In this document: positions 330 to 26,702 of the stretch, piece by piece
How positions within the stretch are numbered: the stretch's first letter is position 1
How the letters are laid out: each line of letters opens with the position of its first letter
NCBI GenBank assembly: GCA_047638595.1
Contig: JBLIMJ010000002.1
Location: forward strand, 640 to 64,639
Source of the DNA: Acidimicrobiales bacterium
Lineage (GTDB): Bacteria; Patescibacteriota; Minisyncoccia; Phycocordibacterales; UBA918
DNA: 64,000 nucleotides
Direction of reading: 5' to 3'
Position numbers and translations under genes: made by a program
Notes under the pieces: generated by a model
The model's input: only the letters and a program-made list of their open reading frames with translations
What the model was told of the DNA's origin: nothing
Database searches by the model: none

Positions 330-581
330 TCTTCTGAATATACTCCATCTGCTTCGGCGAGCTTTCAGTTTTCTCGGTCATCGTATAGACATACGCCTCC
401 CTTCCAAACTTCACCTCTTCTCGTATCTCGAGCATCTCAACGCCTCTAACCCCGAGACATCTCAAAACCTAATATCATCTTGAAAGATAGGCTTTTAAAA
501 TCCTAGTTATCCTATACAAATGATAGTATCGCAAAGTCTCATAGCATCTAGAACTACAAAAAAGGTTACGCGACTAAGCTA

Positions 582-1028: not shown

Positions 1029-1090
1029 ACACGATTGATTACGTACCTAAAATAATACTCAATAATAACACCCTCCCTCAAAAATAAAAA

Positions 1091-1121
1091 CACGACACCT
1101 AAAGGGTGTCGTGTTTTTTCA
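1091..1121. terminator. intrinsic terminator hairpin ACACGACACC-TAAA-GGGTGTCGTGT followed by TTTTTT (A-run on other side, bidirectional)
   Basis: perfect 10-bp stem plus T-run read directly. Confidence 0.6.
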
Positions 1122-1129: not shown

Positions 1130-1465
1130 CACCTAAGGTTCTAAAATCAATAGATGATTCTAGATACGAGGTGTGCAAGGAAGTGAGTGCGAGCCGTACT
1201 TGAGATACGGTGTGAGAAAGTGTTTAAACACTTTTGCAAGAGGTTGCCTGGTATTTTCTTTAGAAAATAATGACAACCTGTACAGCTTCTGTAAGAAGAG
1301 TTATTTCGCGAAACGTAACGAAGTTAATGAAGTGATGTTCAGAAATAAAAAGTGACTGTGGATACGAGGCGGGCAAGAAAAAAGGTCCAAGGCGTACTGA
1401 GTGGTACGGCGTCGGACCTTTTTTCGTAGCCTAACGAAGTAGACGTAGTGATTTTTTATTTCTGA
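1130..1465 (-). repeat. about 2.5 tandem copies of a terminator-associated structured module downstream of secY (hairpin-in-hairpin with GATACGAGG..GCAAG..CGTAC-loop-GTACGG core)
   Basis: repeated motifs gatacgagg(t/c)g(t/g)gcaag(g)aa and (g/c)cgtac..gtacgg at 1150-1213 and 1358-1420; repeated aacgaagt..agtgat at 1305-1335 and 1431-1458. Confidence 0.6.
1376..1426 (-). terminator. secY terminator: outer stem AAAAAAGGTCC/GGACCTTTTTT enclosing inner hairpin GGCGTAC-TGAGTG-GTACGGCG
   Basis: read from sequence immediately 3-prime of secY stop. Confidence 0.65.
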
Positions 1466-2740
1466 TTAGTACTCTCGTAGACTGACTTGTGCGTCGATCT
1501 TTCGGATTAGGTCAAGCACCACGTTCACCACAATAAGTAACGCAGTACCTCCAATAGCGAGCGAGGTTACTCCAGTGAACACTGTCATTCCTACTGGGAA
1601 TACTGCAATAAATCCAAGGAATCCAGCACCAACAAGTGTCAGACGTGTAATCACGTTACCAAGGTATTGTGCAGTGTGTGCTCCTGGTCGAATACCGGGA
1701 ACAAACGCTCCACTTCGTTGCAGGTTCTTCGAAATCTGTTCAGGATCGAACGTCACTGCTGTGTAGAAGAAGGTAAAGAGGAATACCAGTATAAAGTACG
1801 TAATTCCGTACATTACCTGATTGCTAATAAACCAATTTACTGCATCCAACGCCCCTGGTACCCAAGTAAAATTAAATGCTGAAAGAATATTCAGAATCAT
1901 CTGTGGGAATAGAAGGATTGAAAGTGCAAAAATGATTGGGATTACACCAGCTTGGTTCAAGCGCAATGGGAGGTATGACTGACTTCCGCCGTATGTCTTA
2001 GTCCCACGACTTTGTTTTGCGTAAGTAATCGGTATCGGACGCTCCGCTTCAGTCATCACTACAACGGCATAGATAATAGCGAGTCCTATAAAGACAAATC
2101 CTATATACAATGGAAGTTGTGATGGGTCAGTAAACGCAAATGCCAACTGACTCATGGTCTGAGGGATACTCGCAACAATTCCAGCAAAGATAATAATGGA
2201 TACACCATTACCAATACCAAATTCGGTGACCAATTCACCAACCCACATAAGAAGGAGTGACCCTGCAACAATCAGCATGACATTGACTCCAAATTCAAAT
2301 GAAGAAAGCCCTGAAATCACACCCTGGTTTTGCAAGAGTGAGAGAAATCCAAAACCTTGTAAAATTGCCAACGGTAATGTGAGCATACGCCCGTATTGTT
2401 GGAATTTTGCACGTCCTGATTCTCCGTCTTCTGAGTGCATCGCTTTCAGGCGTGGTGACATCACCGTTGAAAGCTGCATGATAATTGAGGCAGTAATGTA
2501 CGGCCCGACACCAAGCATTACAATCGAAAGGTTAGCCAATCCACCTCCAGAAAACATGTTCATCAAACCAAGGAATTCGTTATTTGAGAAGAACTGTTCC
2601 AAAACAGCTACGTCAACACCAGGAATTGGTATTGCGGCGAGTGCTCGAAAGATTATCAATGCACCGAGTACAAAAAAGATTCGGTTTCGAATTGTTTTCT
2701 CAGTGAAAGCTATCTTGAGCTTATGAATGAATTTCTGCAT
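1466..2740 (-). CDS. secY: preprotein translocase subunit SecY
   Basis: 424 aa, 10 TM helices, strong SecY similarity (GIGNGVSIIIFAGIV, plug and hinge regions). Confidence 0.95.
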   Translation of the reverse strand: MQKFIHKLKIAFTEKTIRNRIFFVLGALIIFRALAAIPIPGVDVAVLEQFFSNNEFLGLMNMFSGGGLANLSIVMLGVGPYITASIIMQLSTVMSPRLKAMHSEDGESGRAKFQQYGRMLTLPLAILQGFGFLSLLQNQGVISGLSSFEFGVNVMLIVAGSLLLMWVGELVTEFGIGNGVSIIIFAGIVASIPQTMSQLAFAFTDPSQLPLYIGFVFIGLAIIYAVVVMTEAERPIPITYAKQSRGTKTYGGSQSYLPLRLNQAGVIPIIFALSILLFPQMILNILSAFNFTWVPGALDAVNWFISNQVMYGITYFILVFLFTFFYTAVTFDPEQISKNLQRSGAFVPGIRPGAHTAQYLGNVITRLTLVGAGFLGFIAVFPVGMTVFTGVTSLAIGGTALLIVVNVVLDLIRKIDAQVSLREY

Positions 2741-2817: not shown

Positions 2818-3267
2818 TTACGCTACTGTTCCACCTGCTTTCTCAATCTTCGCTTTCGCTGAAGCAGATACTTCACATGCAGTAACAGTCAGTTTAAGAG
2901 AAAGTTCTCCTGTACCGAGTATTTTAACTGCAGGCGCTTTCTTGCGTCGTGATGAGATAAGACCTGAAGCAACAAGTGTTTTTGGATTTACCTCTGCACC
3001 TGCTTTAAATCCAGCTTCAAGTGCACTTACGTTAATCACTGTAGGCATTATCTTTTCAGCATTCACAGTCTTAGCACGGTTGATACCGTGACCTCGAAGC
3101 TTTGGAATCTTCTTGATAATCTCACGCATTTCTGGACGTGTACTGTTACCAGCACGAGCTGCTTGTCCTTTGTGCCCCCTTCCAGAGGTCTTACCACGCT
3201 TACCACCACGACCAATTCGTTTCTCAGTCTTTCGTGCGGTTGTTGGTTTTAATTCGTGTAATTGCAT
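2818..3267 (-). CDS. rplO: 50S ribosomal protein L15
   Basis: KRIGRGGKRGKTSGRGHKGQ motif; operon position before secY. Confidence 0.9.
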   Translation of the reverse strand: MQLHELKPTTARKTEKRIGRGGKRGKTSGRGHKGQAARAGNSTRPEMREIIKKIPKLRGHGINRAKTVNAEKIMPTVINVSALEAGFKAGAEVNPKTLVASGLISSRRKKAPAVKILGTGELSLKLTVTACEVSASAKAKIEKAGGTVA

Positions 3268-4336: not shown

Positions 4337-4371
4337 AATAGATCTTTAGATATGTAATGGTTTAAATTGCT

Positions 4372-4552
4372 TTAGATACGAGACGAGTGATGAAAATAAT
4401 TTGAGTCGTACACATGTTCCTTACAGGAACTGTACAGGTTGTCGATATTTCTAAAGAAATATCTGGCAACCTCTTGCGAAAGCCTCCCAGGCTTTCTCAC
4501 AACTAAAATTATTTTTTGAAACTCAACGACGTAGATGAAGTGATTTAAAGTA
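4372..4552 (-). repeat. structured intergenic module between rplR and rplF, same family as the secY/rpsG downstream modules
   Basis: contains agatacgag, gagtcgtaca..tgtacagg, and aacgacgtagatgaagtgat motifs shared with 1130-1465. Confidence 0.5.
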
Positions 4553-5086
4553 TTACACCGCTTTCTTACCTTGTTTACGGATGACATATTCCCCTTGATA
4601 CCGAATTCCTTTCCCTTTGTATGGTTCAGGTGGTTTAACCTTACGGATGTTTGCAGCAAACTGGCCGACTGCATGCTTATCAATACCTGAAACGGTAATG
4701 ACACTCTTTTCTACTGTTGTAGTCATGCCTTCTGGTACATCCATCAGTACAGGATGTGAGAATCCTACGCTGATAGTAAGTTTCTGTCCTTGTACTTCAG
4801 CACGGTACCCTACTCCTTCAATTTCAAGTACTTTACTGAACCCTTCAGTAACTCCTGTAACTAAGTTTCGTGCAAGTGCTGCGTAGGTACCCCAGAGAGC
4901 TTGTGCTGCCTTGGTTTCCTTTGCTGGTGCAAGAGTAATGACGCCATCTGCGACCACCACTGTTACATCTTCGCGCATATCTTGCGTCAACGTCCCTTTG
5001 GGACCTTTCACTGTAAGTACTCCGTCTGCAAATGTTACGTCAACACCTGCCGGAATAGTTACTGGAATTTTTCCTAATCGACTCAT
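4553..5086 (-). CDS. rplF: 50S ribosomal protein L6 (start taken at MSRLGKIPV; ORF extends 20 codons further upstream)
   Basis: MSRLGKIPVTIPAGVDV..; two repeated L6 domains. Confidence 0.9.
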   Translation of the reverse strand: MSRLGKIPVTIPAGVDVTFADGVLTVKGPKGTLTQDMREDVTVVVADGVITLAPAKETKAAQALWGTYAALARNLVTGVTEGFSKVLEIEGVGYRAEVQGQKLTISVGFSHPVLMDVPEGMTTTVEKSVITVSGIDKHAVGQFAANIRKVKPPEPYKGKGIRYQGEYVIRKQGKKAV

Positions 5087-9942: not shown

Positions 9943-10448
9943 TGTATATATCTTAAAGAAGATGTTGCGAATATAGAAAACCGAACGGTTCGCTATATCC
10001 GCATACTTAATAATTATTCTGCCTCCCCTATCACATCGATAGGTTAGTGTAACGGTTTATTGTTAGGGATTGCCCTACCAGAGGCGAATCCAAAACGAGG
10101 TTAGAACGGGGCTATATTACGTGAAATATGTTGTAAAGTCAACACAATAATGGCCCCGGGAGGTCTCCCTGATCCATTGTACCAATTTGGTGTAAAATGC
10201 CGTTATCTCATAAGAAGTTAACAGATACAACTTGTATGAATGACTGATTCGCGGTACAAAGGGGTTAGGAGGTAAGAGATATGCCACAATTGTATGAAGA
10301 GTAGGCGATTTTGCCACCTGAACTACTTAAATCAGCCAAAAATGCGGAGCAGGAATTGAAAAACTTGCTAACTTGCTCTTAAAGGGCGTAACTGGCTTTG
10401 ATTCTGCGATTATAGCGCAATATCAAAGCACACAGGGAGAAACAAACG
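9943..10448. other. 500-bp structured noncoding region where rplB would normally abut rpsS; several nested hairpins
   Basis: hairpins at 9964-10010 (TGCGAATATAG..CTATATCCGCA with inner CGAACGGTTCG), 10030-10047, 10092-10141, 10142-10153. Confidence 0.5.
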
Positions 10449-11474: not shown

Positions 11475-11579
11475 GTTGGGGGTATGTGAGTTACATACCC
11501 CTTTTTGTATTGTCTTTTTGACATTTACGGTGTTCGTCGCCAATCACTAAGTATATTTTTTTCGTCTTCGACTCCAAAC

Positions 11580-11734
11580 CTACTAAGTGTTCTCGACCCC
11601 ACCTCAACTGTCGCTAAAGCAACATGTTTCCGGCTTGGCAAGAGATCCGCAACTGCCTCAAGGCAGTTGTTAAAACAAAGAAAAACACTCCCTTTAAAGG
11701 GAGTGTTTTTCTTTGGTTTATCTCTTCCCACCCA
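11580..11734. repeat. tandem copy 1 of a 190-bp unit: degraded rplB 3-prime end (..IIIVSN-LGGKR*) plus three-stem structured bidirectional terminator
   Basis: P1 aagagat/atctctt, P2 caactgcc-tcaa-ggcagttg, P3 aaaacaaagaaaaac[ACTCCC-TTTAAA-GGGAGT]gtttttctttg. Confidence 0.75.
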
Positions 11735-11769
11735 AGTTACTAACTATAATTATTCGCTACCGCTCCAAT

Positions 11770-11925
11770 TCTAGTAAGTACTCGCGACCCCGACTCGTCT
11801 GTTGCTAAAGCAACATGACTCCGTCTTGGGAAGCGGTCACAACTGCCTCAAGGCAGTTGTTAAAACAAAGAAAAACCTCAGGCTTAAGCCTGGGGTTTTT
11901 CTTTGTTTTACCGCTTCCCACCCAT
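11770..11925. repeat. tandem copy 2 of the same unit, overlapping the true rplB stop
   Basis: P1 gaagcggt/accgcttc, identical P2, P3 apical stem CCTCAGGC-TTAA-GCCTGGGG: compensatory changes relative to copy 1. Confidence 0.75.
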
Positions 11926-14577: not shown

Positions 14578-14627
14578 TTATTTAATTGAACTAGTCTAAT
14601 AATAGTAGCTTTGTTAGACCAACAAAT

Positions 14628-14697
14628 GAGAAATCGCACCGTTTTGGCGCGAGCAGAATGCTCACACAAAAACGGTGCGATTTCTGCCCATTGGTTC
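14628..14697. promoter_or_regulatory. 70-nt hairpin with perfect 17-bp outer stem (AGAAATCGCACCGTTTT/AAAACGGTGCGATTTCT) and inner hairpin GAGCA-GAA-TGCTC, upstream of rplC
   Basis: read from sequence; architecture like the other hairpin-in-hairpin modules. Confidence 0.5.
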
Positions 14698-15140
14698 TCA
14701 TGTCTGCAAGCAAACAATCATCGAACATAGGTCTTTTAAAGCTGGGAGTAGTATACGTATTTATACAATAATTGCAAGACATTCATGGTTACTTTTATTG
14801 GTACAAATTAACAAGCGCAGCGTTTAAAAAGGCGTGATGATTGCACATTTCGTAGTAATAACAATAGTGACGGTACCGCGACCACTCCAAAAGGTATAAG
14901 TTTTGCTACCTGCATCATTAATGAAGACAGAACGCCTCTTAAAGGTTACGAGGGTCATATCTGCCTGATGGATCATCCAGAACATTCAGAAGATTCCGAA
15001 CATTCAGGGACGTGGTGGTATCTATAAGAGGAGGAAAGGTAAGCATACCCCATCTCGGCGATATCTCTTCAAGATGTTGCGTTTGGCTAAAAGTGTAGTA
15101 CTGTTGCACTAAATTAGTACATCAACCATGGGAGATACCG

Positions 15141-15572
15141 ATGAGCAATTCAGATGGAAAAATAATAGTTGCAACAGCTGATGTTGGTGCTGTTCTTGCT
15201 CTGTTGAAACAGCTTGAGCTAGACACAAGTCTTATATTCACAACATCAGGTGAACCACTTGATGAAGGGGCGTTCGAGCGCCTCGGAGCAGAAGTCCGAG
15301 AAATATTAGCGACGCGTAACCTTCCTGTAGCAGATGTTTTGAGGCTTATGGAAAAGGTTGTGAGTGAAGAACCTCCAGTCCTTGCATTGCTGGATGAACT
15401 GTTCAGACCGCAGAAAGGACTCGAACTATTTGCTCCAATGGAAGCACATATGTTGTCAGACATTCCCATAATTCATCTGATTGAAGAGAAGCCGCACCGG
15501 GCATTCGACAATGGCGCAGAAATTCGTTCTGCAAAAGGAGCACGGAAAAAACAAACTCGTTTCAACACCTAG
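15141..15572 (+). CDS. hypothetical protein (143 aa) inserted between rpsJ and rplC on the opposite strand
   Basis: GGAGA RBS 6 nt before ATG; own terminator at 15627-15660; antisense ORF 15122-15469 is low complexity. Confidence 0.55.
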   Translation: MSNSDGKIIVATADVGAVLALLKQLELDTSLIFTTSGEPLDEGAFERLGAEVREILATRNLPVADVLRLMEKVVSEEPPVLALLDELFRPQKGLELFAPMEAHMLSDIPIIHLIEEKPHRAFDNGAEIRSAKGARKKQTRFNT

Positions 15573-15626
15573 CGCGGAAAGTACCCGAAGGCCACCTTGG
15601 TCTTCGGGAATTTTTATACATATAAC

Positions 15627-15660
15627 AAAAGACCGACAGCTTAGCTGTCGGTCTTTTGTT
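15627..15660 (+). terminator. AAAAGACCGACAGC-TTAG-GCTGTCGGTCTTTTGTT intrinsic terminator
   Basis: perfect 14-bp stem with T-run. Confidence 0.65.
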
Positions 15661-15795
15661 ATCCTCACGGACTATCAAATTTTCTTAAAATTGATGAGCT
15701 GCAAGGCGAGATGAAGTTTTATCGGGAGCGGTACATAGGTACCGTGACTGATAAAACTGAAATCTCAACGCCGCAGATCGCTCATTTAAGGAAAT

Positions 15796-16149
15796 TTAGA
15801 TCATTTTCACGTCGATGTTCACACCTGAGGGTAGTGACAAGTTCGTGAGTGCTTCAACCACTTTCGCATTCGGTTCCATGATGTCGATTACACGTTTGTG
15901 CATTCGCATTTCGAATTGTTCTCGCGCATCCTTGTGGACAAATGACGAACGGTTGACTGTGTATTTCTTGATTTCCGTTGGAAGCGGGATTGGTCCTACC
16001 ACTTTTGCGTCGAAACGCATTGCAGTATCGATAATCTGCTTTACAGATGCATCAAGAATCTTGTGCTCATATGCACGGACACGGATTCGAAGCTTTGGAG
16101 TTGCGTCCTTTGCTTCTTTCTTTGTGTCTTTTTTAGATGTTGTAGCCAT
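15796..16149 (-). CDS. rpsJ: 30S ribosomal protein S10 (ATG at MATTSK; ORF track start is TTG 7 codons upstream)
   Basis: RIRVRAYEHKILD..GPIPLPT.. Confidence 0.9.
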   Translation of the reverse strand: MATTSKKDTKKEAKDATPKLRIRVRAYEHKILDASVKQIIDTAMRFDAKVVGPIPLPTEIKKYTVNRSSFVHKDAREQFEMRMHKRVIDIMEPNAKVVEALTNLSLPSGVNIDVKMI

Positions 16150-16205
16150 AATAATTAATTGCTTTCGCAAACTTGCTAGATTGCTTTATATGCAAGACGT
16201 GTGAG

Positions 16206-16250
16206 GAATGAAACGCGAGGCGTACGTAAGGTACGATGAGCGTTTCATTA
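16206..16250 (-). terminator. tuf-rpsJ intergenic hairpin-in-hairpin: outer AATGAAACGC/GCGTTTCATT, inner GGCGTAC-GTAAG-GTACGATGA
   Basis: read from sequence; member of CGTAC..GTACG module family. Confidence 0.55.
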
Positions 16251-16290
16251 CCGAAACACAACGCAGCAGATGAAGTAATATGCGAGTTTG

Positions 16291-17481
16291 TTAGGCTACG
16301 ATTTTAGTAACTACGCCGGCTCCTACTGTCTTACCACCCTCACGGATAGCAAAGTTTGTCTGTTCTTCCATAGCTACAGGAGCTACAAGCTTCACTTTGA
16401 AAGTTGCAGTTTGTCCAGGCATAACCATTTCAGTACCTTCAGCAAGTGTTACGTCACCAGTTACGTCCGTTGTTCGGATGTAAAACTGTGGTTTGTAACC
16501 TGAGAAAAATGGAGTGTGACGCCCACCTTCTTCCTTACCAAGTACGTATACTTCAGCTTCGAACTCAGTGTGAGGAGTTACAGACCCCTTAGCAGCAAGC
16601 ACTTGACCTCGGTGTACCTCTTCTTTCTTAGTACCTCGTAGAAGGATACCTGCATTGTCTCCAGCTTGTGCTCGATCCAGTTGCTTGTTGAACATCTCAA
16701 CACCTGTAACAGTAGTTGTTGCAGTGTCTTTCATTCCAACAATTTCAATTTCCTCTCCAACCTTTACAGCTCCTCGTTCTACACGACCAGTTACCACAGT
16801 ACCACGTCCTTCAATTGAGAAAATGTCCTCAACTGGCATAAGGAATGGCTTATCAAGATCTCGTTCTGGAATCGGGAAGAAGTCATCCATTGCTTGCGTA
16901 AGCTCAAGAACTTTCTTACCCCATTCTCCAGCAGGATCTTCAAGAGCCTTAAGTGCTGAACCTTTAATGATAGGTGCGTTTTCGCCATCAAATCCGTTTT
17001 TTGTAAGCATTTCTCGAAGCTCTTCTTCAACGAGCTCAAGCATTTCTTCATCATCAACCATATCGCACTTGTTCATAAATACGATCATGTTTGGTACACC
17101 AACTTGCTTTGCAAGAAGTACGTGCTCACGAGTTTGTGGCATCGCACCATCCGTTGCAGCAACTACAAGTACCGCACCGTCCATCTGCGCTGCACCAGTA
17201 ATCATGTTCTTAATGTAGTCCGCGTGACCTGGCGCATCAATGTGTGCGTAGTGTCGATTTGGAGTCTCATACTCAGAGTGAGAAAGAGAAATAGTGATAC
17301 CTCGCGCCTTTTCCTCTGGCGCTTTGTCAATATCCTCTACAGCTTTAAGGTTTGCTGTGTAACCTTCACCAGCTTGTGCTAGTACGTTTAGAATTGCAGC
17401 TGTAAGTGTAGTCTTACCGTGGTCTACGTGACCAATAGTTCCTACGTTTACGTGCGGCTTAGTTCGATCGAAATCTGCCAT
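16291..17481 (-). CDS. tuf: elongation factor Tu
   Basis: 396 aa; [22 protein letters not shown] motifs. Confidence 0.97.
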
Positions 17482-17717
17482 AATAATAGCTTAACTTTAA
17501 TAAATATATACCGCACACGGCTGCTTCCTAATTTTAATATAAAAATAAAAAGCTTCTCCAGTGCAAATGTAGGGCCGCGAGAACATCGCGCCACATTTCC
17601 ACTGCAGGTATGACAATGAGCAGTATAGTTTCCCCGACACAGTATAAGTCGTATCGGTGCGGCAATAGTACCAGAATCGACCTTTTTTGCAAGCGATATT
17701 CTGGACCAGAATACAAA

Positions 17718-17757
17718 CAAACCGCACAATCTCGCGCATGCGATTTGATTGTGCGGT
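17718..17757 (-). terminator. AACCGCACAATC..ATTGTGCGGTT 12-bp stem with palindromic CGCATGCG loop, 3-prime of hypothetical gene
   Basis: read from sequence. Confidence 0.5.
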
Positions 17758-18364: not shown

Positions 18365-18585
18365 GGTCGAGTATGCATAATTTTAATGAATATGTAAAGC
18401 AAAAGACCAGCCAGTGCCGGTCCTTTGCTTTATTGGTCTTCAGTCATTAGGGTCAAGTTTCTAATTAGCTAATCGGTATATAGAGAGAGTAAATCATCAA
18501 CTTTTAATCCTTACTTTCACAAACGAATGATATCGTAAAAGTTTACTTTTATGATTCATGAGTGCAGGGAAAGAAAATTTATTTA

Positions 18586-18662
18586 CAGGATCTGTTCAGG
18601 TTATCGCTATTTTTACTAAGGTAAAAATAGCTGGTAACCTTCATTAAGACCTCACGAAGAAT
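18586..18662. repeat. copy A of 77-bp structured element (contains GCTATTTTTAC-TAAG-GTAAAAATAGC hairpin) downstream of fusA
   Basis: identical to 18694-18771. Confidence 0.8.
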
Positions 18663-18693
18663 ACTCCTCTGTTTCTTCGGTCTTTTAATCCTT
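18663..18693 (-). pseudogene. duplicated, frameshifted remnant of the fusA 3-prime end
   Basis: ctcctctgtttcttcggtcttttaatcc versus the true 3-prime end at 18807-18833 (cttctgtttcttcggtcttaatgcc). Confidence 0.6.
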
Positions 18694-18771
18694 ACAGGAT
18701 CTGTTCAGGTTATCGCTATTTTTACTAAGGTAAAAATAGCTGGTAACCTTCATTAAGACCTCACGAAGAAT
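18694..18771. repeat. copy B of the 77-bp element
   Basis: identical to copy A. Confidence 0.8.
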
Positions 18772-18806
18772 AAAAATAAGGCACCCTGCGGGGTGCCTTA
18801 TTTTTA
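18772..18806 (-). terminator. fusA intrinsic terminator AAGGCACCC-TGCG-GGGTGCCTT with flanking A/T runs (bidirectional)
   Basis: abuts fusA stop codon. Confidence 0.7.
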
Positions 18807-20993
18807 TTCTTCTGTTTCTTCGGTCTTAATGCCTCTCGCTGCTTTAATTTCGGCAGCGACATTTGGTGGTACTACTTCGTAGTGGTCAAATTCCATAGTC
18901 ATTGAGGCGCGTCCTTGTGTCATAGATCGTAGTGAGTTTGTGTATCCGAACATTTCAGAGAGTGGTACTTTCGCATTTACGATAGTCTTTCCTCCGAGTT
19001 CTTCAGAACCTTCAACCTGTCCACGCTTAGAAGAAATGTTTCCATTTACGTCTCCTAAGTATTCTTCTGGTGTTCGTACTTCAACCTTCATCACCGGTTC
19101 AAGGAGTACTGCGCTTGCACGCTTGGAAGCTTCTTTAAATGCATTGATTCCTGCAAGTTTGAAGGCGATTTCACTTGAGTCCACGTCATGGTATGAACCA
19201 TCGTAAAGCTCAATTGATACATCTTCCATCTTGTATCCAGCAACCTGCCCTCTCGCCATAGCTTCCTTACACCCTTTCATTACTGGAACAATGTATTCCT
19301 GTGGAATCACACCTCCCTTAATACTATTGATGAATTCGAAATGGTCTTCTCGCGTTACATTCTTTGCAAGCTTCTTTGGTTCACCATCCTCATCTAACTC
19401 TAGTGCTTCAAGCGGCTTGATTCGAATCTTCACGTGACCGTATTGCCCACGTCCACCTGACTGCTTGATGTACTTGTGTTCTGCTTCGGCCTCTCGTTGG
19501 ATTGTTTCTCGGTATGCTACTTGTGGCTTACCAATATCCGCTTCAACACCAAACTCTCGTTTCATTCGGTCAACAAGAATGTCGAGGTGAAGCTCACCCA
19601 TACCAGCAATAATAGTTTCAAGTGTTTCAGGATCAGAAGATACCTTAAATGTAGGGTCTTCATCAGAAAGTCGTTTAAGTGCCATTCCCATTTTTTCCTG
19701 GTCTTGCTTTGTTTTAGGCTCTACACGCACTGCAACCACTGGTTCAGGGAACGTAATAGTTTCAAGGAGCATCGGTGCATCCACATCACAAAGTGTATGT
19801 GAAGTTTTTACTTCTTTAATTCCTACCGCTGCAGCAATCTCTCCTGCGTACACTTCATCCACCTCTTCTCGTTTGTCTGCCATAAGTCGTACGATTCGTC
19901 CTACTCGTTCTTTGTTTCCAGTAGATGAGTTCATGATGTATGTCCCAGACTTCATCGTACCTGAATACACACGGAAGAATGCAAGTTGCCCCACAAACTT
20001 ATCGTCTTGTAGTTTGAACACAAGAGCGCTCAATGGTTCATCATCAGAAGGTTTCCGTGTGATGACAGTTTCTTCATCTTTGATGTCAGTTCCTTGAATA
20101 TCAGGAAGATCAAGTGGAGACGGGAGGTAGTCAACCACAGCATCAAGTACAAGTTGTACACCGATGTTCTGCAATGCAGTACCGGCCATAACAGGGAAGA
20201 TTTCATTTGCGAGCACCGCAACACGAAGTACTCGTTTCAAGTCTTCGTTTGAAGGTTCATTTCCTTCAAGAAAAGCTTCCATAAGCGCATCATCATGCTC
20301 CACAACTCGTTCAACAAGTTCCGCTCGACGTGCTACTGCTTCTGCAACAAACTCTTCAGGAATGTCCGCTTCAGTAACATCTGTTCCCATTTCTCCTGAA
20401 AAAGAGTACGATTTCATAGTGATAAGGTCTACCACTCCACGCATGTCATTTTCTGCCCCCATAGGAATCTGGATTCGGCACGCTTTCTTTGAAAGACGTT
20501 CTTCGATAGATTTAACCGCAGCATCGTAGTCAGCTCCCATTTTGTCCATCTTGTTTACAAAACAGATTCGTGGCACTGCAGCTTCGTCAGCATACCCCCA
20601 GTTTGTTTCAGTCTGTGGCTCTACACCAGCAGCACCATCAAATACCACAACCGCACCATCAAGTACACGCATAGAACGCTTTACCTCTGCAGTAAAGTCG
20701 ATGTGACCTGGAGTATCAATAATGTTAAAGGTGAACTTTTTATCGTTATTGTCTCGATCTGTTTCTAGTGTTTTTGACCAGTTACAAGAAATAGCAGCAG
20801 AAGTAATAGTAATACCACGCTCTCGTTCTTGGTCCATCCAGTCAGTGACTGTTTCACCGTCGTGAACTTCACCAATCTTATGACTCATTCCTGTATAGAA
20901 AAGAATTCGTTCAGATGTAGTTGTTTTACCAGCATCAACGTGCGCAACAATACCGAAGTTACGTAGTCGATCTAGTGGAAATGCTCGTGCCAT
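18804..20993 (-). CDS. fusA: elongation factor G
   Basis: 729 aa; AHVDAGKTTT, DTPGHIDF, NKMD. Confidence 0.97.
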   Translation of the reverse strand: MARAFPLDRLRNFGIVAHVDAGKTTTSERILFYTGMSHKIGEVHDGETVTDWMDQERERGITITSAAISCNWSKTLETDRDNNDKKFTFNIIDTPGHIDFTAEVKRSMRVLDGAVVVFDGAAGVEPQTETNWGYADEAAVPRICFVNKMDKMGADYDAAVKSIEERLSKKACRIQIPMGAENDMRGVVDLITMKSYSFSGEMGTDVTEADIPEEFVAEAVARRAELVERVVEHDDALMEAFLEGNEPSNEDLKRVLRVAVLANEIFPVMAGTALQNIGVQLVLDAVVDYLPSPLDLPDIQGTDIKDEETVITRKPSDDEPLSALVFKLQDDKFVGQLAFFRVYSGTMKSGTYIMNSSTGNKERVGRIVRLMADKREEVDEVYAGEIAAAVGIKEVKTSHTLCDVDAPMLLETITFPEPVVAVRVEPKTKQDQEKMGMALKRLSDEDPTFKVSSDPETLETIIAGMGELHLDILVDRMKREFGVEADIGKPQVAYRETIQREAEAEHKYIKQSGGRGQYGHVKIRIKPLEALELDEDGEPKKLAKNVTREDHFEFINSIKGGVIPQEYIVPVMKGCKEAMARGQVAGYKMEDVSIELYDGSYHDVDSSEIAFKLAGINAFKEASKRASAVLLEPVMKVEVRTPEEYLGDVNGNISSKRGQVEGSEELGGKTIVNAKVPLSEMFGYTNSLRSMTQGRASMTMEFDHYEVVPPNVAAEIKAARGIKTEETEE

Positions 20994-21338
20994 AATAATG
21001 TTAAATATGTGTGTAAATAATAAATCACGTAAAAAATAACTCTTACGCGCCTCCCTTCACCTTTTCATATACATATATATGTATTTCGTCGGAGAAAGTA
21101 ATTGTCCAAGGACAAAGTGCGAGTACTATACGGCATTTATCCCATTTAAGCAACGAAATAATACCCTTAAATGACCACTTAAAGCGAAGCTTTTAAGTGG
21201 TCAATTATGTGCAACATACATCCCAATACCTTTGGTTTAGGATGAATATTGACTTTTATACTAAAATATGATATAATACAAATAGGTTAAGGGAACGAAT
21301 ATTCACTTCGTTTTCACCCCGAGCAACAGGAGATCATC

Positions 21339-21779
21339 ATGATTCGCTCAATTGTACTTTCTATCACTATCTTCCTTGGCCTGTCTGGCCAGACTTACGC
21401 ACAGAGCATATCTGAAGCAGACATGGAAACGTCTTTCAACACCGGAAAGATGGTCGACAGCCGTATCGTCGATCAAGAATTTACTCGCATTGGTGGCACG
21501 GTGCCGCTCATGCTGGTCATGTTCGAAGATCCGAACGTAGCAGAACTCGAAAAGCTTTGTCTCGATGTCTGCATTTTTGAATTCACTGCCGTTGAGGGCG
21601 ATATGATGCTATCAGGCATCAAGGCAAATCCCGACGACATGCTGGATCTTCACATCTACAAAGCGTACATGGCCCTGCGTCACGTCGAGGCTCATGACAC
21701 AGGTAGTTTTTTCCACCAAGTGAGGAAGATTGCGAGGGGAAACCCTAGCATCCTTGTCGTGCGAGAGCCAAACAGCTAA
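21339..21779 (+). CDS. hypothetical secreted protein (signal peptide)
   Basis: MIRSIVLSITIFLGLSGQTYAQ. Confidence 0.5.
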   Translation: MIRSIVLSITIFLGLSGQTYAQSISEADMETSFNTGKMVDSRIVDQEFTRIGGTVPLMLVMFEDPNVAELEKLCLDVCIFEFTAVEGDMMLSGIKANPDDMLDLHIYKAYMALRHVEAHDTGSFFHQVRKIARGNPSILVVREPNS

Positions 21780-21933
21780 ATAATTGACAGGGCGGCCAGC
21801 GGCCGTTCTGTCACAACACGCGCTGTGTTTTCTAAAAAGAAAACCTCTGCGTGTTTTCTTTTAGATATGACATCGCATACCTTGACTTTATATAAAAATA
21901 TGTTATTGTATTCTTCTCAAATAGAGAAACGTT

Positions 21934-22512
21934 ATGAAACACATCATCAATCCCTTCACTTATTTACGTGAGGCATACACAGCTGCCCTCCAATCCTTTG
22001 AGTCAGAAGTTTCTCGAAGTTTTGCAGTGACTGCAACAGTGCTTATCCCTGTTTTTGTCGTACTCTTATTCTCTTCAACACTCACTAGTGCCGCACTCTA
22101 TGTATTCCCTGCGAAAACCGTAGACATCCAAGCGATACAAATTGATGTAAATACAGTTGAAATTACCCTCCAAGGTAATCAAACACTTTTAAATGCTGCA
22201 GAAGTAGAGTTTTATTTTGACCCGACATACGTACATGTATATGACGTGAGGCTATCGGAAAGCCTTTGCGAAGAACAATTTATCATTACAAAAGAAGTCG
22301 ACAACATTACTGGTCGTATCTTCTACCAGTGTGGGACAGTGACTCCATTTGCGGGACAAGATACAACCATTGCAACACTGAAAGTTATTCCGCTAAAAGT
22401 TGGTACTTCACCACTTTCATTTGGAAGCAATACAAACGTACTTGCACATGACGGATATGGCTCAAACGTCACCAAAGATCGTCTTGCAAGCATCTTCCAG
22501 TTCTCTGACTAA
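21934..22512 (+). CDS. hypothetical membrane-anchored protein
   Basis: N-terminal TM helix; ORF. Confidence 0.5.
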   Translation: MKHIINPFTYLREAYTAALQSFESEVSRSFAVTATVLIPVFVVLLFSSTLTSAALYVFPAKTVDIQAIQIDVNTVEITLQGNQTLLNAAEVEFYFDPTYVHVYDVRLSESLCEEQFIITKEVDNITGRIFYQCGTVTPFAGQDTTIATLKVIPLKVGTSPLSFGSNTNVLAHDGYGSNVTKDRLASIFQFSD

Positions 22513-22686
22513 AGAAAGCATGCAAAAACTTAAACACGTAACGGATTGCTCCGTTACGTGTTTTTTGACATCAGAAGCTTTTATTACTAGTCACAGCAAT
22601 CATCCATTCTCTGAAGTAACCAAGGTAAGATATATAAATGAGGAGTTGATGCTCCAATAAGTTCATCAAACCTGGGAGGTTTTATA

Positions 22687-23073
22687 ATGCGACATATACT
22701 TACTGCCCTTTGCTTAATGACATTTTCGTTTAGCCAGGCACACGCTGGCTCTGTGGATGAAGAATACATTTGGCTGCCAAAGGAACATACTGTGTGCATG
22801 ACACTCACTGGTCTTGAAGACACAGTCACGGAAGTGAGTTTTGCTGATTGCGGTACCATACCGTACGAAATGCGATTTAGGGTTGCGAACAAAACTGATG
22901 GGAATAATGGATTCAAACTTCTGAGTCTGGAATATATTTTTGTCGCCATTACCGAAGATGGCACAAGTATCGCATCAACAGAGATTCAAGTTCTGTACAG
23001 CATGGATCCACAACCAACTGATGATACAAGCGTATCAAAAGTATTTGTTGGTACCAAAAATATAAATCCTTAA
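22687..23073 (+). CDS. hypothetical secreted protein
   Basis: signal peptide MRHILTALCLMTFSFSQAHA. Confidence 0.5.
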   Translation: MRHILTALCLMTFSFSQAHAGSVDEEYIWLPKEHTVCMTLTGLEDTVTEVSFADCGTIPYEMRFRVANKTDGNNGFKLLSLEYIFVAITEDGTSIASTEIQVLYSMDPQPTDDTSVSKVFVGTKNINP

Positions 23074-23077
23074 ACAC

Positions 23078-23150
23078 GGAAGTGACCAAAGTAAAAATGA
23101 ATTTTTACTTTGGTCACTTCCCCTCCGCGCTTAAGCGCGGTTTTTGTTTG
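23078..23150 (+). terminator. two consecutive hairpins (21-bp stem GGAAGTGACCAAAGTAAAAAT.., then CGCGCTTAAGCGCG plus T-run)
   Basis: read from sequence. Confidence 0.65.
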
Positions 23151-23206
23151 AAAGAAATATCCCTCTCCTCCCGTATAATGAAAGTAATACTTAGTAACAA
23201 TTCTTT

Positions 23207-25288
23207 ATGAAGCAGAGCTTATACGACATAGTAGTAATCGGCGCAGGCTCAGGAGGTCTTACTACCGCAGTTGGTTTTTCCAAAGTTGGAAAGAAAGTTC
23301 TTCTTGTGGAACGTGAACATATCGGTGGAGAGTGCACTAACTCAGGGTGTATTCCAAGTAAAGCGCTTCTGCATCATGCGAAGAGTTATCATGCTGCCAA
23401 ACAGATTTCAGGACAGAGTAAAGAAGGTGAAACCTACCGTACAGAAGCATTCAACTACGTGCGAGACAAAGTAAATAGTATCCTTGAAGAAGAAACGCCT
23501 GAAACATTTGAAAAACTGGGTATTGATGTAGTCATGGGGGAAGCCGTGTTTCATACAAAGTGTTCAATCAAGGTAAATGGCACAACCTACGGGTATAAAA
23601 AAGCTATCATCGCCACCGGCTCCTCCCCACAAATGATCAAAGTCGAAGGACTTAAGACATCGGATGTCTTAAGTAATCAAAATATCTTTGAGTTGGACGA
23701 TGTGCCGAAGAAACTCCTTATCATCGGTTCAGGACCAATCGGAATGGAGATGGGGCAAGCTTTTGCAATGCTCGGAAGTAAGGTGACTATTGCAAGTATC
23801 GATAGTCGTTTCGCACGACTTGAAGATGATTCTATTTCACCAATCATTCAAGCTGAGTTTGAAAAACTTGGTATAGATATTCATCTTAATGCATTTATTC
23901 AAAAGGTGGAAAGTGACGAGGCTGTTTTCGAGCTGAAAGAGAACGATGAAGTAACTGGTGAAGTTACAGTGCCATTCGATAAAGTACTTATCGCCATCGG
24001 CCGAGTGCCGAACCTCCCAGAAGGCTTGGAGATTGCTGGAATCAAGTCAGAGTCGTACGGTATAGTCGTCGACAAGCAACACCGTACCAGCAATAAACAT
24101 GTCTATGCGGTAGGTGACGTCGCGCAGAAACTGAAATTCACTCACACTGCTGACGACATTGGGAGACAGGTGGTCATGCATGTCCTTAGTAAAGGATGGG
24201 TACGTTTAAATACTAAAAAAGCAGTACCTAAAGTTACCTACACAAAACCCGAGATGGCCCAAGTCGGTCTTTCTCACACAGCAGCGTTAGAAAAATATTC
24301 TGCGCAAGAAATAATGCGTATCGAAGTACCGTACACAGCAAACCATCGCGCAAACACCGACAATGAGACTGATGGTCTAATGATTGTCATCGCACGGCGA
24401 TTGAATGGTGCCGTACTTGGAGCACATATCATCGGCGTATCTTCCGGAGAAATGATTTCTGTTTTTACACTCGCTATCGACCGCAAGATTTCCATGTGGC
24501 AACTACGGCGAATTATCTTCGCCTACCCTACCTACTGCCTTCTGATTAAAAAAGCAGGTGACTATTTCTTTGCACAACAAATTGCATCACTGAAAAATGA
24601 TTTATTATATCAATTCAAAAAACATGCACCAAAAATAATTGCACTCATCTTTTGGGGAACTATCCTCTATACATTCCAACAGTATCGAATCGATAACAAT
24701 CTTTCATATCAAGCCATACTATTGCAAGGGCTTCACTTCTTTACGAGCACCATGTACGGACCGTTGGTATACATGGGACTCTACGCCATTCGTCCAATCA
24801 TCCTCTTCCCTGCAACACTTCTCACCGCACTCTCTGGGGCACTGTTTGGTTTCTGGTGGGGTATCGCGTACACCATCTTGGGAGAAAATGCTTCCGCAAA
24901 CTTCGCATACTGGATTGGTCGTTTCTTCGGCAAAGACTTACGCCTTGAAGACTCACTCATTGGCAACTGGGTAGAAGCACTACGAAAAAATGGTTTTGGG
25001 ACAGTGCTCCTTATGCGTCTTTTTTATGTGCCATTTGATCTGACTAACTATGGTTCTGGTATTGTGAAAGTGAAATGGAGTAAATATGCATTAGCAACTG
25101 TCATCGGCATCATGCCAGGACTCACAACCTTTGTTGCACTTGGTGCTGCTGTCGATATAGAAGAGTTTCAAATGAATGGTCTCACCTTCGATGCCCTTGA
25201 CCCAAAATTCCTCGCTCTTTCAGCAACAATATTCATCGTTTCGTTGCTACTTTCAAAATTCTTAAAGTATTGGAGAGCAAAACTATAA
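23207..25288 (+). CDS. bifunctional protein: N-terminal class-I FAD-dependent pyridine nucleotide-disulfide oxidoreductase (about 450 aa, CTNSGC redox disulfide, dihydrolipoamide dehydrogenase/mercuric-reductase-like) fused to C-terminal DedA/TVP38-TMEM64 membrane domain
   Basis: GAGSGGLT, GGECTNSGCIPSK, NADH-binding GSGPIGME, dimerisation domain; C-terminal 6 TM with DedA-like signature. Confidence 0.8.
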   Translation: MKQSLYDIVVIGAGSGGLTTAVGFSKVGKKVLLVEREHIGGECTNSGCIPSKALLHHAKSYHAAKQISGQSKEGETYRTEAFNYVRDKVNSILEEETPETFEKLGIDVVMGEAVFHTKCSIKVNGTTYGYKKAIIATGSSPQMIKVEGLKTSDVLSNQNIFELDDVPKKLLIIGSGPIGMEMGQAFAMLGSKVTIASIDSRFARLEDDSISPIIQAEFEKLGIDIHLNAFIQKVESDEAVFELKENDEVTGEVTVPFDKVLIAIGRVPNLPEGLEIAGIKSESYGIVVDKQHRTSNKHVYAVGDVAQKLKFTHTADDIGRQVVMHVLSKGWVRLNTKKAVPKVTYTKPEMAQVGLSHTAALEKYSAQEIMRIEVPYTANHRANTDNETDGLMIVIARRLNGAVLGAHIIGVSSGEMISVFTLAIDRKISMWQLRRIIFAYPTYCLLIKKAGDYFFAQQIASLKNDLLYQFKKHAPKIIALIFWGTILYTFQQYRIDNNLSYQAILLQGLHFFTSTMYGPLVYMGLYAIRPIILFPATLLTALSGALFGFWWGIAYTILGENASANFAYWIGRFFGKDLRLEDSLIGNWVEALRKNGFGTVLLMRLFYVPFDLTNYGSGIVKVKWSKYALATVIGIMPGLTTFVALGAAVDIEEFQMNGLTFDALDPKFLALSATIFIVSLLLSKFLKYWRAKL

Positions 25289-25352
25289 ACACAACATATA
25301 CCATAAAGGACGGAGAACACATCTCCGTCCTTTATTTTCAGAAACTGCTCAA

Positions 25353-25715
25353 TTAAGCAACTGGCCAGACTTTCCCTGAAATAACCCAAAAAGTACCTCC
25401 GATAATTCCTAGGATTAATATAAAACCTATAACTGCAAGTGTTATTCCTAAAACACTATGCTTTCTTTTTTTAGGTTCAGACTGTGCACTTTTAATGTCA
25501 CCTCCCTCAACAGTTTTTTCTGCTTCATTTTCTGTCTGTGCAGGTGCAGAGGTATCGGCCTCTACAGCAAAATCGTTACACGCTGTATACACGAGTTTAA
25601 TTTCTTCATCGGAATAGCCGGCTTCATGAAGTTCAGCTTGTATTTTTTCGTACGGGTATCCTATTTCGATACGTTCACGTACAGCATTTAATAATTGTGG
25701 ATCCAAGTCATTCAT
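25353..25715 (-). CDS. hypothetical protein with C-terminal TM anchor
   Basis: ORF. Confidence 0.45.
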   Translation of the reverse strand: MNDLDPQLLNAVRERIEIGYPYEKIQAELHEAGYSDEEIKLVYTACNDFAVEADTSAPAQTENEAEKTVEGGDIKSAQSEPKKRKHSVLGITLAVIGFILILGIIGGTFWVISGKVWPVA

Positions 25716-25784
25716 ATCTAATATTATGCCACACTAATGTACTGAGCTTCTATTTTATAAACAGAAACATAACCATCTAATCCT

Positions 25785-25816
25785 CAATGACAATTCTTTC
25801 TCGTTTTTCATCGACA
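25785..25816 (-). repeat. remote duplicate of the 3-prime end (last 12 codons and stop) of the AbrB-like gene at 26703-26888
   Basis: tcaatgacaattctttCtcgtttttcatcgac versus tcaatgacaattctttTtcgtttttcatcgac at 26719-26750; encodes VDEKRERIVIED*. Confidence 0.75.
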
Positions 25817-25924
25817 CTCTATTATTCTTCATAGCACTCAAGCCTGGGCAGACAGGCTATAATCCTTGACAATATTCATTTTGATTATATATTAGATTTG
25901 GAAGTATCATAGAAAGGAACTCCG

Positions 25925-26524: not shown

Positions 26525-26544
26525 TTCTACCGAGGATTGAGAAT

Positions 26545-26570
26545 CCCGCGTTAAAGGCGGGGTTTTTTCT
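26545..26570 (+). terminator. CCCGCG-TTAAAG-GCGGGG plus TTTTTTCTTTT
   Basis: read from sequence. Confidence 0.65.
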
Positions 26571-26688: not shown

Positions 26689-26702
26689 GTCTTTAAATAT
26701 CT

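Follow-up and report, generated by a model that had tools for sequence, protein, structure and literature searches.

Does a hairpin module that recurs behind ribosomal protein genes end the transcripts of these genes, or does it serve a different purpose at gene boundaries? This question is raised by the region downstream of secY (positions 1130-1465) in a 64-kb window, the whole stretch of 64,000 nt from contig JBLIMJ010000002.1 that was examined in the present study. The original prediction, which was made from the letters of this DNA, described a dispersed family of "hairpin-in-hairpin" terminator modules downstream of ribosomal genes. We designate this module X, a structured, rod-like hairpin element of ~120-140 nt, the copies of which in the window are lettered A to J; L-numbers denote stretches of other genomes. 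The observation is genuine: X is an abundant, deeply conserved, and apparently undescribed element of the Patescibacteria, or candidate phyla radiation (CPR), with an unusual polarity. It is neither ribosome-specific nor a canonical terminator, and part of the earlier description belongs to a second element, Y, which is nested in some X copies.

Copies of X in the window

X is recognized by the core GAGNCGTAC-N4-6-GTACGRTGA. A fixed-loop form of this core, AGNCGTAY-N5-RTACGRYG, matched the window exactly four times versus 0.00 expected matches in 100 shuffles. A covariance model (R1), which was built from 44 aligned copies (alignment A2), detected ten X copies with E values between 9.5e-23 and 2.4e-4, corresponding to a density of one copy per 6.4 kb.

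330-447, minus strand: X copy I (R1 33.2 bits, E 2e-6; core AGGCGTATGTCTATACGATG)
1143-1340, plus strand: X copy B (R1 matches the 5' part, 1143-1266, with 25.9 bits)
1341-1461, plus strand: X copy A (R1 80.2 bits)
4355-4553, plus strand: X copy C (R1 56.9 bits), between rplF (stop 4553-4555) and rplR (start 4336)
15678-15795, plus strand: X copy J (R1 68.8 bits), directly after the rpsJ stop (15796-15798)
16169-16288, plus strand: X copy D (R1 89.6 bits), between tuf (stop 16291-16293) and rpsJ
33436-33650, plus strand: X copy F (R1 40.8 bits; matched part 33527-33640)
33776-33894, plus strand: X copy E (R1 57.5 bits; fold energy -68.8 kcal/mol)
34523-34642, plus strand: X copy G (R1 91.8 bits), between rpsL (stop 34633-34635) and rpsG
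62957-63074, minus strand: X copy H (R1 80.6 bits), directly after the RNase Y stop (62958-62960, plus strand)

The core and its flanking motifs were present at each locus originally listed, and the R1 matches, the alignments, and the covariation described below identify these loci as homologous copies of one structured module, not look-alike independent terminators. Regarding the number of loci, the earlier count of at least seven was real and fell short of the ten found with R1, the copies at 15678-15795, 62957-63074, and 330-447 having been missed. The region at 1130-1465 does contain X, in the form of two tandem copies (B and A) rather than one. Four sites that had been regarded as related nested hairpins (9964-10010, 14628-14697, 17540-17600, and 17718-17757) lack the core, gave no R1 match at E≤1, and are plain hairpins.

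Architecture and covariation

The architecture is described here on the folding strand, which is the strand used in the original prediction, and was derived from alignments A1 and A2 with RNAalifold. The rod begins with P0, a locus-specific basal helix with an A-run on its 5' arm and a T-run on its 3' arm; crude extension gave a median of 9 paired positions (upper quartile 19, maximum 25), and up to ~27 bp were read by eye. Symmetric tandem G.A/A.G pairs (AGAU/AGAU) lie between P0 and P1, a 3-bp helix (U-R-C/G-Y-A) in which A-U and G-C are about equally frequent. Beyond P1, an internal loop (5' NAGGC / 3' AAC-NNN) with invariant AGGC and AAC leads to P2 (4 bp, freely covarying), which is connected through a joint of the form AA(G) / (C)GNAG to P3 (~10-12 bp, also freely covarying). 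In a second subtype of X, P3 is replaced by a symmetric purine-rich zipper (..GAGCAACGGAGU-P4-AUGAGUAGCGGAAG..). The apical hairpin P4, which is closed by tandem G.A pairs and a near-invariant G.U pair (113/119), has the almost invariant sequence CCGUAC/GUACGG. Its rare changes are compensatory: the core variant of copy J, GAGCGGTAC..GTACCGTGA, represents a flip from C-G to G-C (CGGUAC/GUACCG), and copies H and I carry CGUAU/AUACG. The P4 loop of 4-6 nt is unconstrained, is 40% T, and shows no preference for GNRA or UNCG on either strand (GNRA in 1 of 33 tetraloops).

This architecture accounts for two features that had previously been assigned to the gene ends. The flanking motifs quoted beside the secY and rpsL stops are not part of gene stops; they are the two strands of the P1 and P2 helices together with the conserved internal loop. 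The A/T-rich run that was reported to follow the module consists of the A-run and T-run paired inside the basal helix, and at least five T in the 8 nt just beyond P1 were found in only ~40% of copies, with both strands being alike (37/87 in the sense direction and 34/87 in the antisense direction).

Covariation was assessed with alignment A3, which comprises 120 R1 matches from 98 other loci fitted to the model. In A3, 87.3% of cells were paired versus 63.7% after shuffling, and the covariation score was 0.528 versus 0.143 for shuffled alignments (reached in 0 of 500 shuffles) and 0.09-0.12 with slid partners. Compensatory double changes were observed at 23 of the 26 pairs, and an independent MAFFT/RNAalifold alignment agreed, with 23 of 30 pairs being compensatory. 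Co-variation also extends to the non-Watson-Crick internal loop. In A2, CUAGG occurs with AACAACG, CGAGG with AAC(G/A)AAG, and CAAGG with AACGCAG, such that the loop base N covaries with the triplet that follows AAC, which is AAC for U, RAA for G, and GCA for A. In this Patescibacteria-wide family, architecture and placement are fixed, and the fold is under selection.

The invariant apical helix and the covarying loop imply a putative conserved binding partner, and the retention of the core across Saccharibacteria, Parcubacteria, and Peregrinibacteria points in the same direction. Known RNA folds were considered. A kink-turn was rejected: tandem G.A pairs occur twice, but Watson-Crick pairs flank them symmetrically in most copies of A2 and there is no 3-nt bulge. 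No L7Ae-family open reading frame (ORF) was found next to rpsL. Mimicry of the 3' domain of 16S rRNA and an 11-nt tetraloop receptor were also discarded, as short likenesses read by eye that either lack colinearity or are poorly kept between copies.

Selection for folding acts on the antisense strand

The folding strand of X is antisense to the abutting upstream gene. In 166-nt segments, the mean fold energy was -59.5 kcal/mol on the folding strand versus -47.7 kcal/mol on the complement, and, of the 129 whole elements compared, 120 were more stable on the folding strand (median difference -12.7 kcal/mol); for copy A, the folding strand and its complement gave -42.9 and -30.7 kcal/mol. Since the conserved G.A and G.U positions could dominate this result, the variable arms were refolded alone after being joined by a neutral GAAA loop. 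The folding strand was again better for P0 (67:19, Wilcoxon p 1.5e-9) and for P2-P3 (69:14, p 9e-11). Furthermore, one position of P0 is U.G in 45 of 120 copies, and the conserved unpaired bases are purines on the folding strand. C-to-T deamination linked to transcription or replication, which acts on the coding or leading strand, would give the opposite asymmetry, and the pattern observed consequently reflects selection. The fold is selected on the strand that is antisense to the upstream gene. This result is paradoxical because only the complement is certain to be transcribed, and yet selection acts on the other strand.

Placement relative to genes

The orientation of X is tied to the gene that it abuts. 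With crude ORF calls, the gene on the 3' side of the folding strand lay on the opposite strand in 85 cases versus 26, and, with a stricter ORF definition, 73 of 89 upstream stops were separated from the core by 36-57 nt. Measured from the 3' AGAU, the stop codon follows at 7-9 nt in 15 cases and at 13-23 nt in 38 cases, within the 3' arm of P0. One arm of P0 is, therefore, often formed by the stop codon together with the one to four codons before it, and the other arm by an inverted copy of this sequence across the element. In the window, the 22-bp P0 of copy A reaches the secY stop codon (1466-1468, minus strand), and the basal helix of copy E takes in the rpsG stop codon (33893-33895) and the last codons, such that the conserved end of S7 (..AW-stop) is paired. 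In copy G, the last four rpsL codons (CCTAAATCTGAA, encoding ...PKSE) are mirrored by a perfect 11-nt inverted copy at 34521-34531. The stop codon is similarly paired within P0 in L037 (GTTTAAG), L016, and L044.

All ten copies in the window follow this rule of placement and orientation, even though the strand of I and H is opposite to that of A-G. The genes around copies A-G are all on the minus strand (secY at 1466-2740, rplR, rplF, rpsJ, tuf, rpsG, and rpsL), and copy I begins directly past the stop (327-329) of a plus-strand ORF at 3-329. Copies I and A/B, which are ~700 bp apart on opposite strands, each match the orientation of their own gene; this reversal within 1 kb indicates that orientation follows transcription, not replication. 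At a convergent junction in L009, two X copies face each other, each beside its own gene. A replication-strand-specific signal in single-stranded DNA (ssDNA), such as an IS200/IS605-like end or a primosome site, was rejected on these grounds because orientation flips with the gene within 1 kb; in addition, the folding strand would be the leading-strand template.

X abuts housekeeping genes of diverse kinds, those for SecY and ribosomal proteins included. The proteins encoded next to X at 92 loci fall into 73 clusters of unrelated families, among which EF-Tu, RpoD, MetK, MreB, FtsW/RodA, PilC, and a PilT-like protein are recurrent, and a restriction to ribosomal genes was not borne out. A ribosomal-protein autoregulatory leader was also rejected because X is also found behind the RNase Y gene, behind a cmk-like ORF, and behind dozens of other, unrelated genes, and lies on the wrong strand for a leader.

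X is not a canonical terminator

The terminator function on the transcript of the upstream gene, as originally proposed, was not supported. A consensus scan flagged canonical terminators at 1118-1086, 6105-6065, 18767-18810, 18432-18395, 63096-63134, and 61339-61311, while on the sense strand it flagged none of the ten X copies in full, the sole sense match being a 6-bp fragment in copy E (33829-33810). The first of these sites lies beyond copies A and B on the secY transcript.

1086-1118, minus strand: canonical intrinsic terminator of 14 pairs (6 G-C) followed by a T-run; not part of X

The order at A/B and at H is, thus, stop codon, X, and canonical terminator, with copy H being followed by an apparently bidirectional terminator at 63096-63134. 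A GC-rich hairpin that was not flagged by the scan (15628-15660) is present beyond copy J. Other copies are located within operons: in the spc operon, 19 nt separate the end of copy C from the rplR start codon, the distance being ~20 nt for the intact orthologues from L037 and L070, and copies G and D sit within the str and tuf-S10 clusters. Sense transcription must pass through X at C, G, and D. A canonical intrinsic terminator of the upstream gene accordingly fails in its U-tract, in the strand that folds, and in its position relative to the ends of transcription units.

A second element nested in X

The "hairpin-in-hairpin" appearance and the long forms at 1130-1465, 4372-4552, and 33439-33657 are real, and are explained by a nested element. 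Repeat analysis and reading of the loci revealed Y, a second, undescribed structured repeat family of ~80-95 nt with the layout GUGAG - P1 hairpin - GCAAGA - long P2 - UGNACAG - NNNCU-GUA-AGN'N'N'. An alignment of thirteen Y copies, drawn from the window and from other genomes, was good, with 20 of 26 predicted pairs being compensatory. The copies in the window are as follows.

1212-1298, plus strand: Y in X copy B
4417-4500, minus strand: Y in X copy C
33470-33551, plus strand: Y in X copy F
18579-18655 and 18688-18764, minus strand: two tandem Y copies, 100% identical, downstream of the fusA terminator
43659-43753, minus strand: solo Y between a truncated duplicate of a gene 5' end and the intact tRNA_edit gene
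61194-61269, plus strand: solo Y behind clpP, with the clpP 3' end directly repeated on either side (21/22 nt)

In copy B, Y is inserted just past the 3' half of the core (..GATACGGTG/TGAGA.., with the slash marking the junction), whereas in copy C it lies in the opposite orientation and replaces the 3' half of the core. Copy F duplicates E in tandem (97% identity over 62 nt) and carries along a pseudo-copy of the rpsG 3' end; its Y is inserted after ..ACAAGG in the conserved internal loop. The junction in the X loop is of the form ..NAGG/GUGAG..CUGUAAGNNN/, and the same insertion point is used in L008 (the orthologue in L073 is empty), L075, and L041. X copies are preferred targets of Y. Y was also detected in L003, L032, L041, L075, L008, L087, and L088, with the copies in L032 and L087 being at the same place as the tandem pair at 18579-18764. 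Outside X, Y is always sense to the flanking genes (9/9). Its classification as a MITE (a transposable element of the miniature inverted-repeat kind) of the IS200/IS605 type was rejected because its subterminal hairpins differ in sequence between copies and covary.

Duplicated gene ends accompany several Y copies. At 43754-43895 (minus strand), a 47-codon truncated duplicate, ~60% identical, of the N terminus of the tRNA_edit (YbaK-like) gene at 43142-43645 ends exactly at the 5' junction of Y (CAAGG/TGAG). Direct repeats of the last ~22-25 nt of clpP (61150-61170 versus 61290-61310) and fusA (18664-18690 versus 18805-18827) flank Y, for which homology-facilitated illegitimate recombination is one possibility.

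Distribution of X

A pattern scan of contigs from one genome per species with TTCACCGTAC-N4-6-GTACGRCTC returned at least 120 stretches in public genomes, nearly all of which belong to the Patescibacteria/CPR. According to record titles among the matches listed, 43 were from Saccharibacteria, 18 from Kaiserbacteria, 19 from other Parcubacteria/Paceibacterota (Zambryski-, Nomura-, Vogel-, Lloyd-, and Uhrbacteria), 15 from a "Patescibacteria group", 1 from Peregrinibacteria, 14 were unclassified, and 10 had other labels; three of the last group (L091, L035, and L047) look like chance matches in coding DNA. When applied to 706 kb from 98 CPR loci, R1 gave 120 matches, ~20 of which had not been seeded by the pattern, with E values down to 1e-27. 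The search in other genomes that had been proposed for the module, therefore, showed it to be widespread in CPR, and, together with the 0.00 chance matches of the core, these E values refute chance similarity. A phage origin of X was rejected because 2.9 million viral contigs gave no match.

X was not recognized as a described RNA family in the original prediction, and a search of Rfam 15, its ribosomal-protein leaders and ribozymes included, gave no match at the gathering score, and none on X or Y even at E≤10. Searches of the literature by organism, topic, and the literal core sequence retrieved no paper describing the motif. A preprint on the transcriptome of TM7x states that validated small RNAs are lacking in this organism (10.1101/2022.03.25.485537). 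X is apparently undescribed.

Turnover and rearrangement

The proposal that the module is dispersed and possibly mobile or recombining was supported in part. X is kept at tuf/rpsJ (L032 and L087), at rpsL/rpsG and after rpsG (L041 and L043), and after secY (L070 and L105), and signs of turnover were found beside this conservation. At the rplF/rplR junction, X is present in the window, L037, and L070, and absent from L105 (a 15-nt spacer) and L112 (27 nt). In addition to the tandem pair E/F, two other genomes contain internal units of ~100-120 nt (P1 to P1') that are 96-97.5% identical at non-orthologous sites, with a P0 that is unrelated in each copy. In L043, rpsL lies between two inverted copies (2529-2647, plus strand, and 3117-3235, minus strand), the internal units of which are 96% identical while the basal helix is particular to each copy, and, in L099, a near-identical pair lies 6.8 kb apart. 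Copying into pre-existing palindromes, gene conversion, or an outward growth of P0 by quasi-palindrome correction would fit these findings.

Classical transposition, on the other hand, was not supported. Direct-repeat flanks indicative of target-site duplication were found in 0 of 46 cases (k=3 and k=4), and a 4-bp match at the two L099 copies was, therefore, not accepted as such a duplication. No transposase, recombinase, HUH enzyme, or reverse transcriptase was detected among the 40 window ORFs scanned, and no split X halves flanked an ORF, which argues against an autonomous parent element. X was also rejected as a MITE because it has no shared terminal inverted repeats, P0 being locus-specific, and no target-site duplications.

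The cluster of genes for ribosomal proteins and elongation factors is broken at junctions marked by X or Y (20993-33893 and 14578-15795). The first break places ~12 kb of unrelated genes between rpsG and fusA, including those for an ABC ATPase, an oxidoreductase-VTT fusion, a second ClpP, and a surface-repeat protein; the second places ~1.2 kb between rpsJ and rplC.

Possible functions of X

The reading that we prefer, with a rough probability of 0.3, is that X is a strand-specific, factor-recognized hairpin that acts in antisense-polarity RNA at gene 3' ends. The functional molecule would be of antisense polarity and, most simply, an RNA from polymerases that approach the 3' end of a gene from downstream, which may have started at a convergent gene, at the next promoter when it fires divergently, or at spurious promoters that occur in AT-rich DNA. 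The rod would fold in this RNA, and a conserved cellular factor may then recognize the module formed by the invariant P4, the G.A pairs, and the internal loop. The incoming transcript would be stopped or processed at the gene boundary, thereby keeping antisense transcription out of genes that are mostly highly expressed, while the complement, which folds less well, would allow read-through of operons in the sense direction. X itself may be turned over by tandem duplication and by the copying or conversion of the ~100-nt unit from P1 to P1'. This reading fits the polarity, the position at gene boundaries, the facing pair in L009, and the bias toward highly expressed genes.

Several findings weigh against an antisense guard of this kind. 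Transcription of the folding strand is a prediction. Ahead of X on its own strand, we found no conserved promoter and no consensus matches, only a mild enrichment of TANNNT that is present on both strands. A canonical and apparently bidirectional terminator at A/B and H, and the unflagged hairpin at J, lie between X and the incoming antisense polymerase, and shielding of X at these sites would make the guard redundant there. At operon-internal sites, antisense RNA could arise only from promoters inside the next gene. Since a U-rich run accompanies only ~40% of copies, intrinsic termination is not a general mechanism and a factor must be postulated. Moreover, an invariant P4 helix with a free loop is as typical of a protein-recognized DNA hairpin as of RNA. 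Some copies also depart from the usual placement. In the metagenome-assembled genome (MAG) CAZWYJ01, X lies ~10-17 nt upstream of same-strand tRNA genes at two sites (L071, ~397-520; L119, 1889-2116), one copy having been found by the scan and the other read by eye at the cut end of L071; these exceptions imply that RNA of X polarity is made there. A copy in L043 is located ~75 nt upstream of the rpsL start in the sense orientation. RNA of the X strand is, therefore, not always a dead end. Linkage to tRNA genes was not regarded as a general feature because it involves only two copies from one MAG.

It is also possible, although in our opinion slightly less probable, that the complement of X in the mRNA is the functional form, as a sense element of the 3' untranslated region (3'-UTR) that stabilizes mRNAs, provides a processing site to segment polycistronic mRNAs, or acts as a conditional attenuator. 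In the last case, a ribosome terminating at the stop codon in P0 would mask the 5' arm of the basal helix, such that only translated mRNA would be read through. The coupling of placement and orientation to the upstream stop codon favors a sense element, and this codon, being 7-23 nt before P1, lies within the footprint of a ribosome. The complement is found between the stop and a canonical terminator at A/B and H and before the unflagged hairpin at J, as well as inside operons; it still forms a strong hairpin (mean of -47.7 kcal/mol per 166 nt), and A-run/U-run flanks are present in ~40% of copies. However, the other strand folds consistently better, the freely varying helices included. Read in the sense direction, the invariant G.U corresponds to A.C and the tandem G.A pairs to U.C/C.U, and the conserved unpaired bases would all be pyrimidines. 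The remaining 60% of copies are without a U-run, and none of the ten copies passes the terminator scan whole.

Folded DNA represents another tentative candidate, which we regard as no less probable than the sense element: X may be an ssDNA or cruciform arm that is recognized by a conserved DNA enzyme in a manner similar to attC or to repetitive extragenic palindromes (REPs) and their REP-associated tyrosine transposases (RAYTs), and may be selfish, domesticated, or a site of recombination or boundary marking. An invariant P4 with an unconstrained loop and a strand-specific fold without a visible promoter are expected of such an element, the geometry of which would resemble that of attC in that the antisense strand folds and the element starts at or over the stop codon and carries few conserved boxes (the invariant AAC) between covarying helices. 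The ~100-nt units with 96-97.5% identity at non-orthologous sites and unrelated P0 (the L043 and L099 pairs), the gain or loss of X at rplF/rplR, and the breaks in gene order at X/Y junctions (12 kb in rpsG-fusA and 1.2 kb in rpsJ-rplC) also favor folded DNA. A difficulty is that orientation follows the neighboring gene and not the replication strand (I versus A/B), which is hard to reconcile with ssDNA exposed by replication. The 40 window ORFs scanned lacked a recombinase, transposase, HUH enzyme, or reverse transcriptase, target-site duplications were found in 0 of 46 cases, the AAC box has no GTTRRRY partner, and the flanked genes are essential core genes in a largely conserved order. The purine-rich loops with their isosteric-looking co-variation are more typical of RNA.

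It appears unlikely that each X is an independent small RNA (sRNA) gene, i.e., a ~100-130-nt trans-acting or protein-sequestering RNA made from its own weak promoter, the antisense placement of which merely avoids read-through. The fold is on the appropriate strand, and, in our judgement, a rod with purine-rich loops resembles protein-binding RNAs. TAAAAT-like hexamers often precede the AGAU of P1 by 6-7 nt (A2 and its logo), but the A-run of the hexamer pairs with the T-run of the 3' arm and is conserved no better than its partner. A transcript starting at P1 would omit the covarying P0, the space at C, L037, and L070 is too short to accommodate a promoter, and the tight register with the stop codon would be left unexplained.

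Ordinary intrinsic terminators that evolved independently and look alike by chance or composition, to which the A-run/T-run flanks and the resemblance of some P3 helices to GC-clamped terminator stems (copies A and E) might point, are scarcely credible and the reading is refuted, in view of 0.00 core matches expected by chance, R1 E values down to 1e-27 in other genomes, the covarying conserved loops, the copies within operons, and the canonical terminators beyond copies.

Comparison with known systems

The system closest to X in logic is the attC site of integrons, in which the bottom strand folds directly 3' of an ORF and structure is kept rather than sequence. X likewise lies directly 3' of an ORF, often over its stop, in a fixed orientation with the folded strand antisense to the ORF, and shares with attC a length of ~60-140 nt and few conserved boxes, including an AAC triplet. 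In contrast to attC, X does not have the RYYYAAC/GTTRRRY pair, its invariant AAC faces NAGGC instead of GTT, and it is conserved apically (P4) as well as basally. Neither an integrase nor attI was seen in the window ORFs scanned, and X flanks essential core genes and is conserved across a superphylum, not within cassette pools.

REPs and bacterial interspersed mosaic elements (BIMEs), including the REPIN and RAYT systems, are closest in genomic habit as dispersed, multi-copy, extragenic, and strand-specific hairpins behind genes. They are targeted by insertion elements, as X is by Y, and within-genome homogenization is possible in both. REPs differ from X in that they are 20-40 nt with a GTAG or CGTC tag, whereas X is ~120-140 nt; GTAG occurs in X (G-Y-AGAU) in ~30% of cases (Y = T in 26 of 88 copies). 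Furthermore, REPs are near-identical within a genome and species-specific, while the helices of X differ within a genome and its core is common to CPR classes; the X copies in the window share only the core and loops. No RAYT (Y1/HUH) gene was present among the 40 ORFs scanned in the 64-kb window.

Rho-independent and bidirectional terminators, together with the mycobacterial TRIT family, resemble X in their position after genes and in a hairpin flanked by an A-run and a T-run, and TRIT is also a recognizable sequence family that recurs behind many genes. X differs in that its fold is selected antisense, its T-run is paired in the basal helix and absent from ~60% of copies, and it occurs within operons and ahead of canonical terminators. 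Its conserved internal loops and apical helix are not needed by thermodynamic terminators. To our knowledge, no terminator or REP-like repeat is known to have such an antisense polarity at stop codons.

The halves of X, 5' GAGCCGUA ... UACGGU 3', presumably match the lower helix of domain V of group II introns almost exactly, and we assume that this likeness, which extends to the U6 internal stem-loop, covers the position of the AGC triad and the G.U wobble; it is taken as a lead only. X has no 2-nt bulge, upper helix, GNRA loop (1 of 33 tetraloops), D1-D4, or D6, gave no match to the Rfam family Intron_gpII at E≤10, and is not inside genes.

Implications

A large part of bacterial diversity falls within the Patescibacteria/CPR, the genomes of which are tiny and densely packed. 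At approximately one copy per 6 kb, as in the window, X would rank among the most abundant conserved non-coding features of CPR genomes. A more speculative view, which we consider rather improbable, is that X is the recognition module of a CPR-wide machinery that polices gene boundaries on the antisense strand, either through a factor-dependent system that ends or degrades antisense transcripts at gene 3' ends or through an ssDNA recombination system for which even housekeeping genes would be "ORF + hairpin" cassettes. If the former were true, X would represent a structured-RNA alternative or complement to Rho-type antisense suppression; in either form, Y would be a second structured element that parasitizes the same sites. 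The polarity of X is now amenable to experiments because Saccharibacteria may be grown and transformed. In practical terms, X and Y copies inflate intergenic regions and mark rearrangement-prone junctions in the ribosomal-protein cluster that is used for CPR phylogeny, and could confuse predictors of terminators and sRNAs. The R1 covariance model may serve as a CPR-specific genomic marker.

Other structured sequences in the window

Four further regions appeared to be structured. The spacer between copy G and the rpsG start (34367-34520), which contains a GGCCCCGGGGACACCGTCCCCC hairpin and has no Rfam match, could be an S7-type leader or another element. A lone hairpin at 14629-14685 in the rpsJ-rplC insertion (27-bp arms, 89% complementary, 3-nt loop) is neither X nor Y. 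Two tandem repeats of ~190 bp at 11572-11734 and 11763-11924, which are 78-100% identical in parts, each end in a near-perfect hairpin with 25-bp arms followed by a T-run (11671-11720 and 11861-11910). A sub-threshold Rfam match to the Bacillus sRNA ncr1175 (36.9 bits versus a gathering score of 60; E 0.006) was obtained at 59792-59863 (minus strand), just past the trigger-factor gene, and is probably a terminator hairpin.

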